Virus record (IMG/VR): IMGVR_UViG_2737471845_000027
Reading direction: 5' to 3' (one strand)
DNA from: a virus
Taxonomy: Duplodnaviria > Heunggongvirae > Uroviricota > Caudoviricetes
Length of the DNA stretch: 9,631 nucleotides
The position numbers were made by a program, and so were the translations under genes. Below, one piece after another: positions 1,651 through 9,218 of the stretch. Below the pieces are notes generated by a model. The model was not told where the DNA came from, did not search any database, and worked only from the letters and a program-made list of their open reading frames with translations. Positions within the stretch are counted from its first letter, which is position 1; each line of letters opens with the position of its first letter.

Positions 1651-2184
1651 TCACTCAATCTCACCGCTATAGGCATTCCATCTGAGCATGAGGGCACGCC
1701 AGAAAATATCGTTTATGTGCAAAACGCAGTATGGATTTTCGTCGGGAAGGAGTTGCCCTTCCATGGGGAGCAAAATATTAGCAGATACCAGTTTTTTTAT
1801 ATCAGAATCATTGCGTACAGCATGGATCACAGGATAGTTCCTCGATAATGCCGTAATAAGAATTTTTTTCTGACCCGCAGTCAAGGAATCGATAACTGCA
1901 TTGATATGACTGATTATTTTTTGTTCTCTTGTATTGTTCCGGTGACTTCGCCAGATCTTACGAAGAAATAAAGCTAAACGTTGGAGATTTATAGCCAGCA
2001 CAAAAGAAAAGGCAAAAACGAATACCGGGTAAATATAAGGAATGCTGATTTTGTCTTGAACATACTCCGGCACAGAATCAGGCATAAAGAGCAATATCAA
2101 AACAAAGATAATAAGCATATACATAAGGCGCTCTAAGGGTTCGTTACTGAATAACTTGCTCAACAAGCCGAATACATCAGGCAT
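1651..2184 (-). CDS. sieB: Superinfection exclusion protein B (membrane protein)
   Basis: 177-aa track ORF with a hydrophobic N-terminal region (MLIIFVLILLFM...VFVFAFSFVLAINL) that I recognise as SieB. Opposite strand to the early-left operon. Start could be an internal Met (residue 21 or 23). Confidence 0.85.
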   Translation of the reverse strand: MPDVFGLLSKLFSNEPLERLMYMLIIFVLILLFMPDSVPEYVQDKISIPYIYPVFVFAFSFVLAINLQRLALFLRKIWRSHRNNTREQKIISHINAVIDSLTAGQKKILITALSRNYPVIHAVRNDSDIKKLVSANILLPMEGQLLPDENPYCVLHINDIFWRALMLRWNAYSGEIE

Positions 2185-2719
2185 ATTAATAACTCTCTAC
2201 TGTAAGGGTATTAAAATGCTATCACAAACTCTCGCTGTAGGGGTATAGCCGAGACCACCGAGCCTGAAGTGGTAAAAAGACAGGCACACAACACGAAAGC
2301 GCACGGCGAGGCTGTTAGTTCATAAATGGTCTGTCGTTAAATTTACGTCGACCGTGCGCTTCCGGTTGTGGCACTCCGCGAAATGGCGCGGTGGTAAGTA
2401 TGGCGGGGTTATTCATTCCCAGTTGAGGACACCGGGTTGTCAGGTTGACCATACGCTTAAGTGACAACCCCGCTGCAACGCCCTCTGTTATCAATTTTTT
2501 GGTGACGTTTGGCGGTATCAGTTTTACTCCGTGACTGCCCTGCCGCCCCTTTTTAAAGTGAATTTTGTGATGTGGTGAATGCGGCTAAGCGCACGCGGAA
2601 CAGTTAAAAGCATCAGTGTTATGGGTGGATTATCCGGCGTTAATTGTTAACTGGTTAACGTCACCTGGAGGCACCAGGCACCGCATCAACAAAGTTCATT
2701 TGTAAAAATGGAGATAATT
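2185..2719. promoter_or_regulatory. 535-bp non-coding region between divergent sieB and kilR (pL-equivalent position)
   Basis: No ORF longer than about 33 codons on either strand. GC-rich core at roughly 2280..2600. 9-bp inverted repeat gggttgtca (2434..2442) / tgacaaccc (2462..2470). Weak stem then ccccttttt at 2511..2554. Candidate sieB promoter on the minus strand near 2200..2240. Confidence 0.4.
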
Positions 2720-2941
2720 ATGATTGCACATCACTTCGGAACTGATGAAATACCACGTCAGTGTGTGACTCCTGGTGATTATGTTCTTCATGAAGGCCGG
2801 ACATATATCGCCTCGGCAAACAATATTAAAAAGCGAAAACTTTATATTCGTAACCTGACTACAAAAACATGCATTTCTGACTGCATGATTAAAGTCTTCC
2901 TCGGTCGTGATGGTTTACCTGTAAAGGCGGAGTCATGGTGA
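2720..2941 (+). CDS. kilR: KilR, Rac prophage killing protein (cell division inhibitor)
   Basis: Track ORF 2708..2941; GGAG at 2710..2713 is 6 nt before ATG 2720. 73-aa product [16 protein letters not shown]... recognised as KilR. Confidence 0.85.
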
Positions 2942-3557: not shown

Positions 3558-6209
3558 ATGAGCACAAAACCACTCTTCCTTTTACGGAAAGCGAAAAAAT
3601 CATCCGGTGAACCTGACGTCGTCCTGTGGGCAAGCGACGATTTTGAATCAACCTGTGCCACTCTGGACTACCTGATCGTTAAGTCAGGTAAAAAACTGAG
3701 CAACTATTTTAAAGCTGTTGCCACAAATTTTCCTGTCGTTAATGACCTTCCCCCTGAAGGTGAGATCGATTTTACCTGGAGTGAACGCTATCAACTCAGC
3801 AAAGACTCCATGACCTGGGAACTAAAACCGGGAGCAGCGCCAGACGACGTTCACCATCAGGAGGATGCACCGGAAACCGAAGAACCGACGGGAGGCCAGG
3901 AAGAAAACGCGCAGGCAGACGCCCACGAGGATTGCCAGGATTGCGAAGTCTCTGTAGCCACTTTGCGGTTCACACAGCGTCTTCTGCACATTTTTACGTA
4001 TGCAGCCGGGGATCGAAAATACCTGCATCATGCCACCCGTGAACAACGCAAACACATTACTGCTCTTGAGATGGATCAGGAAAACAGCTATGTCCAGAAT
4101 CTGCTGTTGGCCATACGCAGCATGGCAGAACCGACAACTCTGGATAATGCCGCCCTGCTCCGCCTGACTGATGCAATTAAGGCAGTGTTCTCTATCACGA
4201 AAAAACATCAGCCCTATGAATTTAAGAATTTCATTTCAGCCTGGCTGGATACCGAACACATTGATCGCGGTCTTCTGACAAAGGAATGGCGAAAAGGGAA
4301 TCGTGTTTCACGCATCACTCGCACGGCTTCCGGTGCTAATGCTGGCGGCGGGAACCTCACCGATCGCGGCGAAGGTTTCGTCCACGATCTGACGTCACTG
4401 GCGCGCGATGTAGCCACTGGCGTACTGGCCCGTTCAATGGACGTGGACATCTATAACCTTCATCCGGCACACGCTAAACGCATTGAGGAAATTATCGCTG
4501 AAAATAAACCACCCTTTTCTGTTTTCCGCGACAAATTCATCACCATGCCTGGCGGGCTGGATTATTCCCGCGCCATCGTGGTTGCGTCCGTGAAAGAAGC
4601 ACCAATTGGGATCGAGGTCATCCCCGCACACGTCACTGAATATCTGAACAAAGTACTGACTGAAACCGATCATGCCAACCCTGATCCGGAAATCGTGGAT
4701 ATTGCCTGCGGTCGCTCCTCGGCCCCGATGCCGCAGCGAGTAACAGAAGAAGGAAAACAGGACGATGAAGAAAAACCACAACCATCTGGCGCAATGGCAG
4801 ATGAACAGGCAACGGCTGAAACAGTGGAACCGAATGCAACTGAACATCATCAGAACACGCAGCCGCTGGATGCTCAGTCACAGGTAAATTCTGTTGATGC
4901 GAAATATCAGGAACTGCGGGCAGAACTCCATGAAGCCCGGAAAAACATTCCATCAAAAAATCCTGTCGATGCCGATAAATTGCTTGCTGCATCACGTGGT
5001 GAATTTGTTGACGGAATTAGCGACCCGAACGATCCGAAATGGGTTAAGGGGATCCAGACTCGCGATTCTGTGTACCAGAACCAGCCAGAAACGGAAAAAA
5101 TCAGCCCGGATGCGAAACAACCTGAGCCAGTAGTGCAACAGGAACCGGAAATAGTCTGCAATGCCTGCGGTCAGACTGGCGGGGATAACTGCCCTGACTG
5201 TGGTGCGGTGATGGGCGACGCAACATACCAGGAAACATTCGGTGAAGAGAATCAGGTTGAAGCTAAGGAAAAAGATCCGGAGGAAATGGAAGGCGCTGAA
5301 CATCCGCACAATGAGAATGCTGGCAGCGATCCGCATCGCGATTGCAGTGATGAAACTGGCGAAGTCGCAGATCCCGTAATCGTAGAAGACATAGAGCCAG
5401 GTATTTATTACGGAATTTCGAATGAGAATTACCACGCGGGTCCCGGTGTCAGTAAGTCTCAGCTCGATGACATTGCTGATACTCCGGCACTGTATTTGTG
5501 GCGTAAAAATGCCCCCGTGGACACTACAAAGACAAAAACGCTCGATTTAGGAACCGCTTTCCACTGCCGGGTACTTGAACCGGAAGAATTCAGTAACCGC
5601 TTTATCGTAGCACCTGAATTTAACCGCCGTACAAACGCCGGAAAAGAAGAAGAGAAAGCGTTTCTGATGGAATGCGCAAGCACAGGAAAAACGGTTATCA
5701 CTGCGGAAGAAGGCCGGAAAATTGAACTCATGTATCAAAGCGTTATGGCTTTGCCGCTGGGGCAATGGCTTGTTGAAAGCGCCGGACACGCTGAATCATC
5801 AATTTACTGGGAAGATCCGGAAACAGGAATTTTGTGTCGGTGCCGTCCGGACAAAATTATTCCTGAATTTCACTGGATCATGGACGTGAAAACCACAGCG
5901 GATATTCAACGATTCAAAACGGCTTATTACGACTACCGCTATCACGTTCAGGATGCATTCTACAGTGACGGTTATGAAGCACAGTTTGGTGTGCAACCAA
6001 CTTTCGTTTTTCTGGTTGCCAGCACAACTGTTGAATGCGGACGTTATCCGGTTGAGATTTTCATGATGGGCGAAGAAGCAAAACTGGCAGGCCAGCAGGA
6101 ATATCACCGCAATCTGCGGACCCTGGCTGACTGCCTAAATACCGATGAATGGCCAGCTATTAAGACGTTATCACTGCCCCGCTGGGCTAAGGAGTATGCA
6201 AATGACTAA
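3558..6209 (+). CDS. recE: Exodeoxyribonuclease VIII (RecE)
   Basis: 883-aa ORF with GAGGT RBS. N-terminus [26 protein letters not shown] and C-terminal nuclease region ([13 protein letters not shown]...) recognised as RecE. Internal Cys4 motif [15 protein letters not shown]. Confidence 0.95.
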
Positions 6210-7035
6210 GCAACCACCTATCGCAAAAGCCGATCTGCAAAAAACTCAGGGAAACCGTGCACCAGCAGCAGTTAACGATAAGGATGTGCTGTGCGTGATT
6301 AACAGCCCGGCAATGAAAGCGCAACTGGCAGCAGCTCTGCCACGTCACATGACAGCGGAACGCATGATCCGCATTGCTACAACAGAAATCCGTAAAGTAC
6401 CGGAACTAAGAAACTGTGACTCGACGAGTTTTATCGGTGCCATCGTACAGTGTTCACAGCTCGGACTTGAGCCAGGTAGCGCCCTCGGTCATGCATATCT
6501 GCTACCGTTCGGCAACGGAAAAGCAAAAAACGGTAAGAAGAACGTACAGCTGATCATCGGTTATCGCGGCATGATCGACCTTGCCCGTCGATCAGGTCAA
6601 ATCATCAGTCTGTCAGCTCGTGTTGTCCGTGAATGTGATGAATTCAGCTATGAACTTGGCCTTGATGAAAAACTGGTTCATCGTCCCGGTGAAAACGAAG
6701 ATGCCCCTATAACCCATGTCTATGCTGTTGCAAAACTGAAAGACGGAGGAGTGCAGTTTGAAGTCATGACCCGCAAACAGGTAGAAAAAGTTCGCGACAC
6801 ACACAGCAAGGCGGCAAAAAACGCAGCGTCAAAAGGGGCGTCGTCCATCTGGGATGAACACTTTGAAGACATGGCCAAAAAGACAGTGATACGAAAACTG
6901 TTCAAGTATCTGCCGGTATCTATTGAAATCCAGCGTGCAGTATCGATGGATGGAAAAGAGGTGGAAACAATTAATCCAGACGACATATCGGTTATAGCCG
7001 GGGAATACAGTGTAATCGATAATCCAGAAGAATAA
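6202..7035 (+). CDS. recT: Recombinase RecT (single-strand annealing protein)
   Basis: Track ORF 6145..7035; true start taken as ATG 6202 ([23 protein letters not shown]...) with AAGGAG at 6188..6193. Overlaps the recE stop by 8 nt. Confidence 0.9.
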
Positions 7036-7079: not shown

Positions 7080-7286
7080 ATGACAAAAACTTTGAGATAT
7101 GACGATGTTAAACCATGTCCGTTTTGTGGTTGTCCATCAGTAACGGTGAAAGACATTTCAGGATATTACCGGGCAAAATGCAACGGATGCGAATCCCGAA
7201 CTGGCTATGGTGGAAGTGAAAAAGAAGCGCTCGAAAGATGGAATAAACGAACCACTGAAAATATTAATGGAGGCGTTCATGTATAA
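7080..7286 (+). CDS. ralR: RalR / Lar (restriction alleviation protein; type I toxin DNase)
   Basis: Internal ATG of track ORF 7053..7286. 68-aa product MTKTLRYDDVKPCPFCGCPSVTVKDISGYYRAKCNGCESRTGYGG... with two Cys pairs, recognised as RalR. Confidence 0.85.
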   Translation: MTKTLRYDDVKPCPFCGCPSVTVKDISGYYRAKCNGCESRTGYGGSEKEALERWNKRTTENINGGVHV

Positions 7287-7467
7287 AATTACCGCTACAA
7301 TTGAAAAGGAAGGTGGCACTCCTACTAACTGGACAAGATATTCAAAATCTAAACTAACGAAATCAGAATGCGAAAAAATGCTCTCAGGTAAAAAAGAAGC
7401 AGGCGTTTCCAGAGAGCAGAAAGTAAAACTGATAAATTTTAATTGCGAGAAACTTCTGTCCTCGTGA
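7279..7467 (+). CDS. ydaC: YdaC-like small protein
   Basis: Track ORF 7207..7467; GGAGG at 7270..7274 is 4 nt before ATG 7279 (MYKITATIEKEGGTPTNWTRYSKSK...). Overlaps the ralR stop by 8 nt. Start could instead be ATG 7267. Confidence 0.65.
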   Translation: MYKITATIEKEGGTPTNWTRYSKSKLTKSECEKMLSGKKEAGVSREQKVKLINFNCEKLLSS

Positions 7468-9015: not shown

Positions 9016-9028
9016 TTTAAATACAATT

Positions 9029-9131
9029 AAAAAGAGACCGAATACGATTCCTGTATTCGGTCCAGGGAAATGGCTCTTGGGAGAGAGCCGTGCGCTAAAA
9101 GTTGGCATTAATGCAGGCTTAGTTGCCTTGC
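9029..9131 (-). ncRNA. sdsR: SdsR (RyeB) sigma-S-dependent small RNA
   Basis: Minus strand reads GCAAGGCAACTAAGCCTGCATTAATGCCAACTTTTAGCGCACGGCTCTCTCCCAAGAGCCATTTCCCTGGACCGAATACAGGAATCGTATTCGGTCTCTTTTT, which I recognise as SdsR. 3' terminator hairpin spans 9036..9062, followed by a T-run. Confidence 0.8.
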
Positions 9132-9134
9132 CCT

Positions 9135-9145
9135 TTAAGAATAGA
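9135..9145 (-). promoter_or_regulatory. Sigma-S-type extended -10 element for sdsR
   Basis: Minus strand TCTATTCTTAA, close to the sigma-S -10 consensus TCTATACTTAA, ending 4 nt before the SdsR 5' end. Confidence 0.55.
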
Positions 9146-9218
9146 TGACGACGCCAGGTTTTCCAGTTTGCGTGCAAAATGGTCAATAAAAAGCGTGGTG
9201 GTCATCAGCTGAAATGTT

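Follow-up and report, generated by a model that had tools for sequence, protein, structure and literature searches.

DicF is encoded in the dicBF operon of the Qin prophage of Escherichia coli K-12, and two routes to its ends have been described there. Its 5' end is attributed to RNase E (Faubladier 1990, as cited in PMC5069750 and PMC9438474); the 3' end of the 53-nt form arises by Rho-independent termination, and a 72-nt form is an RNase III product of read-through transcripts (PMC5069750, PMC9438474), termination and read-through both occurring in Qin according to this literature. Between sieB and kilR of the K-12 Rac prophage, a 98-nt small RNA (sRNA), KilS (b4833), is annotated; Bar et al. 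2021 (PMC8175672) verified it by northern blot and state that a promoter of its own can drive its transcription. Phage HK022 carries put, a cis-encoded structured RNA of two stem-loops and about 70 nt with copies in both early operons (PMC9378689), and the start of the phage P1 ban operon holds an annotated 'dicF-like region' (GenBank AF234173, misc_feature 68472-68573). Here we describe the 535-nt block (positions 2185-2719) that extends from the start of sieB to the start of kilR in the viral record IMGVR_UViG_2737471845_000027 (Caudoviricetes; 9,631 nt, called the window throughout), which is a Rac-like lambdoid prophage. The block contains DicF and, upstream of it, a 119-nt four-way-junction RNA. 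The junction shows the covariation expected of a genuine RNA structure, has no Rfam family, and is the new part of the block.

The sRNA in the block is DicF, which was among the earliest sRNAs to be described in bacteria. Rfam model RF00039 matches the plus strand at 2497-2548 over its full length (1-52 of 52 model positions) and scores 71.9 bits, the gathering score being 48; the K-12 Qin copy scores 76.7 bits. The annotated ends of K-12 DicF (5' end at NC_000913.3 1649382) map to window positions 2496 and 2549, and the two RNAs differ at three positions, a C>U change near the 5' end, a U>C change in the 3' stem region and one extra C in the window. In both the minimum free energy (MFE) and the centroid fold, the terminator stem pairs 2511-2517 and 2519-2523 with 2533-2537 and 2541-2547, and the U-tract occupies 2550-2554; a simple terminator scan missed it because of its interior loops. 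Duplexes predicted by RNAduplex with the ftsZ translation-initiation region, covering the Shine-Dalgarno sequence, reached -39.2 kcal/mol for window DicF and -38.5 kcal/mol for K-12 DicF. This comparison is weak on its own, because KilS, which is not a DicF by Rfam, gives a similar energy (-40.2 kcal/mol, KilS and its target segment both being longer).

The surroundings of DicF agree with this identification. Positions 2275-2700 are 91.5% identical to the 'long untranslated region' between ydfC and dicB in K-12 Qin (a 567-bp gap), and DicF lies in the untranslated part of an early operon of the prophage, with the DUF1391/sieB region on one side and kilR on the other. A three-way alignment of the window, K-12 Qin and K-12 Rac (A1) shows that the block is a mosaic, of Rac type from 2185 to about 2275 and in the last ~20 nt, which hold the kilR ribosome-binding site, and of Qin type in the core. 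Of 5426 complete E. coli genomes, 4634 gave a Megablast match to the block, and only 1429 had at least 80% of it; both counts refer to the block around the junction and not to the junction itself. We put the probability that the block is a recombinant copy of this untranslated region, with DicF and its structured leader, set in the early-left operon between antisense sieB and kilR, at roughly 0.85; as such it is essentially a known feature. The initial annotation, made from the sequence alone, had allowed for an sRNA and for an attenuation element; DicF (about 2496-2554) is the first and its terminator is an attenuation or termination element of the second kind. The weak stem with a T-run that had been pointed out is this same Rho-independent terminator (stem 2511-2547, then CCCCTTTTT). 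The block had also been judged larger than a promoter needs, and the space is indeed occupied by DicF and a long structured leader. Taken as it was flagged, the block adds little that is new, being DicF and its leader coupled to kilR instead of dicB.

The four-way junction adds more. Phage BLAST showed that a stretch of about 120 nt upstream of DicF is also present, with DicF missing, in Stx2c, cdtI and P1-like phages, and the region is present in 505 plasmid records, mostly of P1 type. A loop pattern served to gather copies from viral contigs and from genomes, the latter limited to one for each species; they come from Escherichia, Shigella, Citrobacter, Trabulsiella, Erwinia and Izhakiella, and were cut to 27 representatives (alignments A3 and A4). 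From the aligned representatives RNAalifold predicts, unaided, a four-way junction, whose helices are listed in Table 1. On the MAFFT alignment 96.8% of the cells are paired, as against 38-64% in controls with slid partners, and seven pairs have changed on both sides, which none of 500 shuffles matched. The covariation analysis that the initial annotation had proposed gave double changes in 12 of the 29 pairs among 56 distinct sequences, in a model-fitted alignment that leans towards the structure. The MFE fold of the isolated segment 2363-2481 is the same junction, at -41.4 kcal/mol.

The substitutions are spread over several helices. P4 changes from GGGUUGUCA/UGACAACCC to GAGUUGCCA/UGGCAACUC in P1-like phages and to GGGUAACCA/UGGUUACCC in Izhakiella, P3a occurs as GGGG/CCCC, CAGGUG/CACCUG, UGGG/CCCA and GGGU/ACCC, a U-A pair in P3 is replaced by C-G, and helix P1 alternates G-U and U-G with G-C and U-A pairs among variants. 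Because of the G-U pairs in helix P1, the junction is placed on the plus strand, which is that of DicF. Helix P4 is the perfect 9-bp inverted repeat with a 19-nt spacer that had been noted at the outset (GGGTTGTCA at 2434-2442, TGACAACCC at 2462-2470). By our estimate about 0.7 perfect 9-bp repeats within 250 nt of each other are expected by chance in 700 nt, and three were found; the repeat is thus significant because its relatives covary and not because it is present.

The 19-nt loop of P4, GGUUGACCAUACGCUUAAG, is almost invariant. When elements were located with an independent anchor in P2/P3 rather than with the loop pattern, the exact loop was present in 130 of 137 true elements and the other seven differed from it by one base. 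Because the independent anchor also finds it, this conservation is genuine and not an artefact of the pattern. Model R1 scores 136.9 bits in the window and 70.6 bits (E about 1e-16) for the copy in phage P1. An Rfam 15 cmscan of 2100-2800 at E<=5 returned only DicF, STnc100 and a chance match to tsr32, none of them on 2363-2481, and no known riboswitch or ribozyme class in Rfam 15 matches that segment. ARAGORN found 0 transfer RNA (tRNA) or transfer-messenger RNA genes in the window, and there is no Rfam tRNA match at E<5 in 2100-2800. Our literature search found no description of the junction, and the original dicF papers (1990, 1994) may hold an earlier structure.

The conserved core could in principle encode protein, be it a small phrog_8854-like product on the plus strand or the product of a 59-amino-acid open reading frame (ORF) on the minus strand. 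The family phrog_8854, whose function is unknown, matches a 36-amino-acid ORF at 2354-2464 on the plus strand (E=1.9e-13), several phage records annotate hypothetical proteins over the region, and one minus-strand frame is free of stops in 38 of the 56 variants. However, the element varies in length from 111 to 124 nt through indels that are not multiples of three, and nucleotide conservation continues on either side of these indels. The plus-strand frames contain stops in 54-56 of the 56 variants, the plus-strand ORF of the window lacks a start ahead of 2354 and aligns with just 25 profile residues, the helix substitutions are compensatory, and there is no Pfam match. A coding role is therefore highly improbable, and we rejected it on the frame-breaking indels, the stops and the compensatory substitutions; phrog_8854 was probably built from spurious ORF calls over the junction RNA. 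The initial annotation had likewise seen no credible ORF in the block: the four ORFs wholly inside it are of 30-59 amino acids, three of these four were scanned against Pfam and matched nothing, and two more, of 30-31 amino acids, cross the block edges.

Table 1. Coordinates of the features in and around the block, as window positions.
Feature	Position	Strand	Basis or remark
Four-way-junction RNA, 119 nt	2363-2481	+	RNAalifold, covariation, MFE
Junction helix P1	2365-2372 / 2472-2479	+	
Junction helix P2	2376-2380 / 2387-2391	+	
Junction helix P3	2393-2395 / 2431-2433	+	encloses P3a
Junction hairpin P3a	2405-2408 / 2418-2421	+	
Junction helix P4	2434-2442 / 2462-2470	+	the 9-bp inverted repeat of the initial annotation
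A/U-rich single-stranded linker	2482-2495	+	CCCUCUGUUAUCAA; runs on into the U-run at the DicF 5' end
DicF with Rho-independent terminator	2496-2554	+	Rfam RF00039
kilR leader	2548-2719	+	MFE and centroid folds
kilR (Kil, FtsZ inhibitor, 73 amino acids)	2720-2941	+	phrog_294 'Kil protein for bacterial septation inhibition', E=2.1e-36
Upstream hairpin	2294-2364	+	13-nt arms CGAAAGCGCACGG / CCGTGCGCTTCCG, 92% complementary; in MFE fold
sieB-proximal segment	2185-2290		shared with K-12 Rac; outside the DicF module
sieB	1651-2184	-	Pfam SieB, phrog_6399

Wherever the surroundings were read, the junction belongs to an early operon governed by a phage repressor, and all lineages examined have an intrinsic terminator within about 25-100 nt behind it. 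In Qin and in the window this terminator is DicF. In the cdtI phage, cI is followed by a terminator and a consensus pL (TTGACA-17-ATAAT); then come a leader of ~280 nt, the junction with a terminator hairpin behind it, and a long duplex ahead of the first ORF. No N gene is annotated in this phage. In phage P1 the predicted start of the C1-controlled Pban promoters lies ~26 nt ahead of the junction, and the junction is followed by a GCCCAUCUUCGGGUGGGCG-U7 terminator, tRNA genes, tciABC and ban. The junction occurs once per phage, no second copy being found in the whole cdtI genome, including its rightward operon, or in the window. In the cdtI locus (L166 540-728, minus strand), adjoining Rfam matches to C4 antisense RNA and isrK lie to the right of cro.

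The terminators behind the junction differ greatly in sequence. At the viral and genome loci L005-L164, 20-110 nt 3' of the junction, the terminator base UUGGCGG...CCGCCCUUUUU is kept among the lambdoid versions, the hairpin interiors fall into at least 14 sequence classes, and the Rfam DicF model recognises the Qin class only. To judge from their sequences, these hypervariable hairpins look like a family of exchangeable DicF-like sRNA cassettes. A separate observation concerns Erwinia, Izhakiella, Trabulsiella and one viral-contig variant (L161 4640-4720, L164 2480-2570, L141/L157 and L052), in which the terminator hairpin holds AGGAG...AUG, so that a small ORF would start inside the stem; such an ORF could couple translation to termination.

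One reading of the junction is that of a put-like, cis-acting processive antiterminator, which would stay on RNA polymerase and carry polymerases from the repressor-controlled early promoter past the DicF terminator and later ones into kilR-recET. The put RNA itself promotes read-through of terminators by binding the zinc-binding domain of the RNA polymerase beta' subunit. We hold this reading only tentatively, and equally so its extension to phage P1, where read-through would lead into the tRNA genes, tciABC and ban. Besides the constant presence of a terminator behind it, the junction is found in early operons controlled by DicA, by cI and by P1 C1, and no N-like antiterminator is annotated in the operons of its carriers (e.g., the cdtI phage, Qin and the window). 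Its loops and junction strands show much stronger conservation than plain hairpins would require, a sign that the host partner may be conserved too, and in phage P1 a strong terminator lies ~150 nt after the Pban start, yet ban is 2.5 kb further. The junction has also been lost from K-12 Rac, whose kilR is reportedly silent unless Rho is inhibited (Cardinale 2008). Against this, model R1 has no significant match in HK022, including putL and putR, even with filters off (best 8.5 bits, E=2.9), and the architecture differs from the two short stem-loops of put (PMC9378689). The junction is single in each phage and absent from the rightward operon, and Qin shows both termination and read-through. 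As for antitermination of the lambda type, no match to the nut boxA GCTCTT(T)A with at most one mismatch was found on the plus strand of 2185-2719.

The short distances around the junction also suit a different reading, in which it is the 5' domain of a discrete trans-acting RNA of ~200 nt (a decoy, a host-protein platform or a tRNA-like mimic) with DicF as the 3' Hfq-binding part. In phage P1 the terminator lies 20 nt past the end of a junction that itself begins close behind the predicted Pban start, and in the window a unit of ~207 nt can be drawn from 2348, which is 15 nt ahead of the junction, to the terminator end at 2554. The order of the helices is cloverleaf-like, with helix P1 closing three arms and junctions of 3, 1, 0 and 1 nt, and the copy in phage P1 adjoins tRNA genes. 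Neither ARAGORN nor the Rfam tRNA model finds anything here, however; junctions of the cdtI type lie ~280 nt from the pL start without an obvious promoter of their own, and the literature that we read reports no stable species containing the junction. We regard a trans-acting RNA as doubtful.

Predicted folds of the junction together with DicF bear on two further readings. For the window and for Qin, an alternative fold that joins G-rich junction strands to the 3' half of the terminator lies 5-10 kcal/mol below the junction combined with the terminator, a difference that is suggestive only; on these predictions a link between junction folding and termination is plausible. The junction might serve as a scaffold for processing and folding, shielding the C-rich 3' half of the terminator from G-rich upstream sequence and keeping the linker single-stranded for a precise RNase E cut. 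When the junction does not form, GGCGGGG (2402-2408) is paired in the predicted MFE fold to the terminator's 3' half, which destroys the terminator, and stable structures flank the linker as they do in other 3'-derived sRNAs (PMC9438474). A scaffold nevertheless leaves the near-invariant P4 loop and the junction strands unexplained, and the junction is kept in phage P1, whose hairpin is not DicF and has no GGCGG/CCGCC base, so that we consider this role unlikely. The layout would also suit a riboswitch-like aptamer that has the DicF terminator as its expression platform: several helices meet in an aptamer-like junction whose unpaired nucleotides are strongly conserved, an intrinsic terminator comes next, and the alternative fold does compete with this terminator. 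No known class matches, however, the competing pairing uses P3a, whose sequence is not conserved among variants, the distance and sequence between junction and terminator vary widely, and the context suggests no ligand; an aptamer is improbable. Among the possible roles we therefore rank the put-like element or termination determinant first, followed by the trans-acting RNA and then the scaffold, with the riboswitch-like aptamer last.

The sequence that follows DicF is structured as well. In the kilR leader, a long-range duplex of ~30 bp is predicted between 2548-2577 and 2679-2711; it includes the terminator U-tract and encloses small hairpins, among them the inner hairpin CCUGGAGGCACCAGG at 2663-2677, and its 3' strand runs into the kilR Shine-Dalgarno sequence GGAG (2710-2713). 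We infer from the predicted fold that this duplex may be an RNase III substrate. The RNase III route known from Qin fits, because the expected 3' end of the 72-nt DicF (~2567-2568) would fall inside the duplex. STnc100 (RF02076) aligns over its full model with the outer long duplex and the inner hairpins of the leader (2538-2727; E=1.8e-8), but its 45.0 bits are below the gathering score of 47 and the leader is not filed as a member. We know of no function for STnc100. At cdtI-type loci an analogous duplex of unrelated sequence, ACAAAACAGAGAAGA...UCUUCUCUGUUUUGU, lies directly 3' of the terminator, and it is therefore the architecture of the leader and not its sequence that is conserved.

Three observations on the leader stand apart. 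The 5' seed of DicF, GGUGACGUU (2501-2509), is perfectly complementary to AACGUCACC (2657-2665) in the kilR leader; Qin retains both partners, and K-12 Rac, which has no DicF seed, reads GCAGUCACC in its leader. This complementarity could reflect cis pairing, self-targeting or chance. In phage P1 (L165 3838-3965) a weak model R1 match of 10.9 bits contains GGUGAAUGCGGCUAAGCGCACGCGG, the motif of window positions 2575-2600; since it sits just upstream of tciA, a leader of the kil/dicB type may precede that gene. RefSeq usually annotates nothing at loci of this kind, or else a spurious 'DicB fragment' or hypothetical protein, and in MS 119-7 a 'DicB, incomplete' pseudogene is placed over the kilR leader (L002 4435-4518).

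These elements can be combined into a scheme in which one transcript has two fates. Transcripts would come from a repressor-controlled promoter that lies ~1.1 kb upstream; a weak promoter inside the block, near 2348, is a second possible source. They would fold first into the junction and would then reach the DicF terminator (2511-2554). Termination would yield a precursor of ~200 nt, which RNase E would trim within the A/U-rich linker to the 54-nt, Hfq-dependent DicF; by homology with Qin, the linker is the putative cleavage region that creates the DicF 5' end. DicF would then pair with the ftsZ ribosome-binding site and with other messenger RNAs (mRNAs). On read-through, the U-tract and the sequence after it would pair just upstream of the kilR Shine-Dalgarno sequence, and RNase III would cut the resulting long duplex into the 72-nt DicF and a separate kilR mRNA. 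A single transcript would in this way supply two inhibitors of FtsZ, one an RNA (DicF) and the other a protein (KilR). The RNase E, RNase III and Hfq steps proposed for window DicF are those of the 91.5%-identical Qin region, carried over by analogy.

Within this scheme the junction would influence either the choice between termination and read-through or the processing of DicF. In the form that we consider possible but well short of probable, it is an undescribed motif that decides between a stop at the terminator, which yields a DicF-type sRNA, and continued transcription into the genes for toxic products and recombination. It would then head, with the same reservation, the repressor-controlled early operons of lambdoid prophages without N (Qin, the cdtI/Stx2c-type phages and the present Rac-like element) and the ban operon of P1/P7. 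If true, this would be a second class of RNA-based antitermination or attenuation, unrelated to put. Control of termination or processing by the junction would explain how early operons without N pass a promoter-proximal terminator, and how DicF output is balanced against the toxic Kil and DicB proteins.

Several points weigh against this interpretation of the block. The diversity of the junction is modest, with a mean identity of 86% and copies mostly from prophages of Enterobacterales, and P2 and most of P3 are uninformative because they never vary in our sample. The MFE fold of the full 192-nt RNA comprising the junction and DicF is the alternative fold, ~5 kcal/mol below the junction combined with the terminator, and because the alternative is the more stable one, the structure is not fixed by thermodynamics alone. 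STnc100 is below threshold in the window, and the K-12 Qin leader does not reach the threshold either. The internal promoter near 2348 is weak by consensus and was missed by the promoter scan, the processing steps are transferred from Qin, and the role of the junction is one that we infer.

The core had been described as richer in guanine and cytosine (GC) than its flanks, and in 200-nt windows between 2201 and 2600 the GC fraction is indeed 0.505-0.52, against 0.365-0.375 in the flanks. The RNA of 2270-2720 has a folding z-score of -4.98, and none of 100 shuffles folds as well. On the plus strand of the window, a gene for a DicA/RacR-like helix-turn-helix repressor lies at 467-961, and a DUF1391 gene of the ydfA/ydaF type lies inside the ORF at 1210-1428. 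The first protein gene 3' of the block is kilR, in agreement with the RefSeq annotation of the near-identical MS 119-7 locus. Its K-12-type start is the ATG at 2720 (the ORF lister uses an upstream ATG at 2708), and the block therefore ends exactly at the start codon. Downstream on the same strand follow ydaE and racC, and the ORFs at 3558-6209 and 6145-7035 are named recE and recT by their size and gene order. Farther along, Rfam matches the RalA antitoxin sRNA at 7285-7463 (minus strand, 217.6 bits) and the overlapping SraC/RyeA and SdsR/RyeB sRNAs at 9025-9169; the prophage end therefore adjoins the ryeA/ryeB host locus and not the K-12 Rac site.

The initial annotation had placed the block at the position equivalent to pL, and this part of its reading did not hold. 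As it had stated, the block contains no TCAC-N5-GTGA site. The window contains three such sites (0.14 expected): those at 497-509 and 546-558 are on the repressor/cro side, and the third, at 1075-1087, lies between the repressor gene and the DUF1391 gene and is the likely early-left (pL-equivalent) operator. Because the operators adjoin the repressor gene, ~1.1 kb upstream, we rejected the block as a pL or operator region; it is the counterpart of the internal untranslated region between ydfC and dicB in the Qin dicBF operon. Nothing points to operators for a different regulator, which had also been suggested. In sum, the earlier reading allowed for the sRNA and for an attenuation element, misplaced the block at pL and recognised neither DicF nor the larger four-way junction.

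Two segments upstream of the junction complete the block. The sequence at 2199-2290 recurs, with 78-91% conservation, immediately ahead of the sieB genes of lambda, 434, HK630 and P22; the phage BLAST matches cover query positions 15-105 and 46-104, and the annotated P22 and lambda-imm434 contexts agree. The sieB-proximal segment is probably the promoter or regulatory region of sieB on the minus strand, where TTGTGA-17-TACAGT was spotted by eye, below the threshold of the promoter scan. The stem of the upstream hairpin is kept in K-12 Rac through an A>G / T>C double change (A1). Its loop contains a weak -10-like TAAATT (2338-2343), and the equivalent of the KilS 5' end (about 2348) lies just ahead of its 3' arm. 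These features could possibly mark a weak internal promoter near 2348; a simple promoter scan found no plus-strand promoter in the block.

In comparison with described systems, the block is closest to the Qin dicBF operon, with which it shares the order of elements: an upstream hairpin, the four-way junction, the linker, DicF with its terminator, a long-duplex leader and a division-inhibitor gene. That gene is dicB in Qin, whereas it is kilR in the window; the upstream neighbour is ydfC in Qin and antisense sieB in the window, and the window has Rac-type sequence in its final ~20 nt before kilR, where the ribosome-binding site lies. KilS of K-12 Rac, which occupies the position of the block, has its ends at the equivalents of 2348 (5') and 2554 (3') and shares the terminator base, the U-tract and the downstream leader with the window, but its linker and hairpin interior are different. 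The ends and the terminator base align and the interior differs, the junction and DicF being inserted in the window relative to K-12 Rac. K-12 Rac gives no match to model R1 and lacks the whole junction. At that locus (L003, NC_000913.3 1418230-1418670) the sequence jumps from CCGGTTG, the start of the 5' strand of helix P1, to the linker ACGACATTGCTGTGTGTAG, which is found 3' of the junction in other loci, and KilS remains.

The 'dicF-like region' of phage P1 holds a homologue of the junction with compensatory changes in P3 and P4, a terminator directly after it and a repressor-controlled promoter. The hairpin of that terminator has no relation to DicF, which Rfam does not recognise in this region, and the region differs from the window in its pairing register and in the tRNA genes, tciABC and ban downstream. 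The put RNA of HK022 is, like the junction, a cis-encoded structured RNA upstream of terminators in the early operons of lambdoid phages without N, a likeness that is one of possible functional analogy only: put has copies in both early operons (PMC9378689), and the junction is a 119-nt four-helix element present once per phage. The intra-operon or 3'-untranslated-region sRNAs such as SroC (PMC9438474) follow the same logic as DicF, in that an intrinsic terminator sets the 3' end and RNase E the 5' end. The arrangement in the window differs from theirs in that a conserved multi-helix domain precedes the sRNA, and in that read-through transcripts of this type would take a second, RNase III-dependent route.

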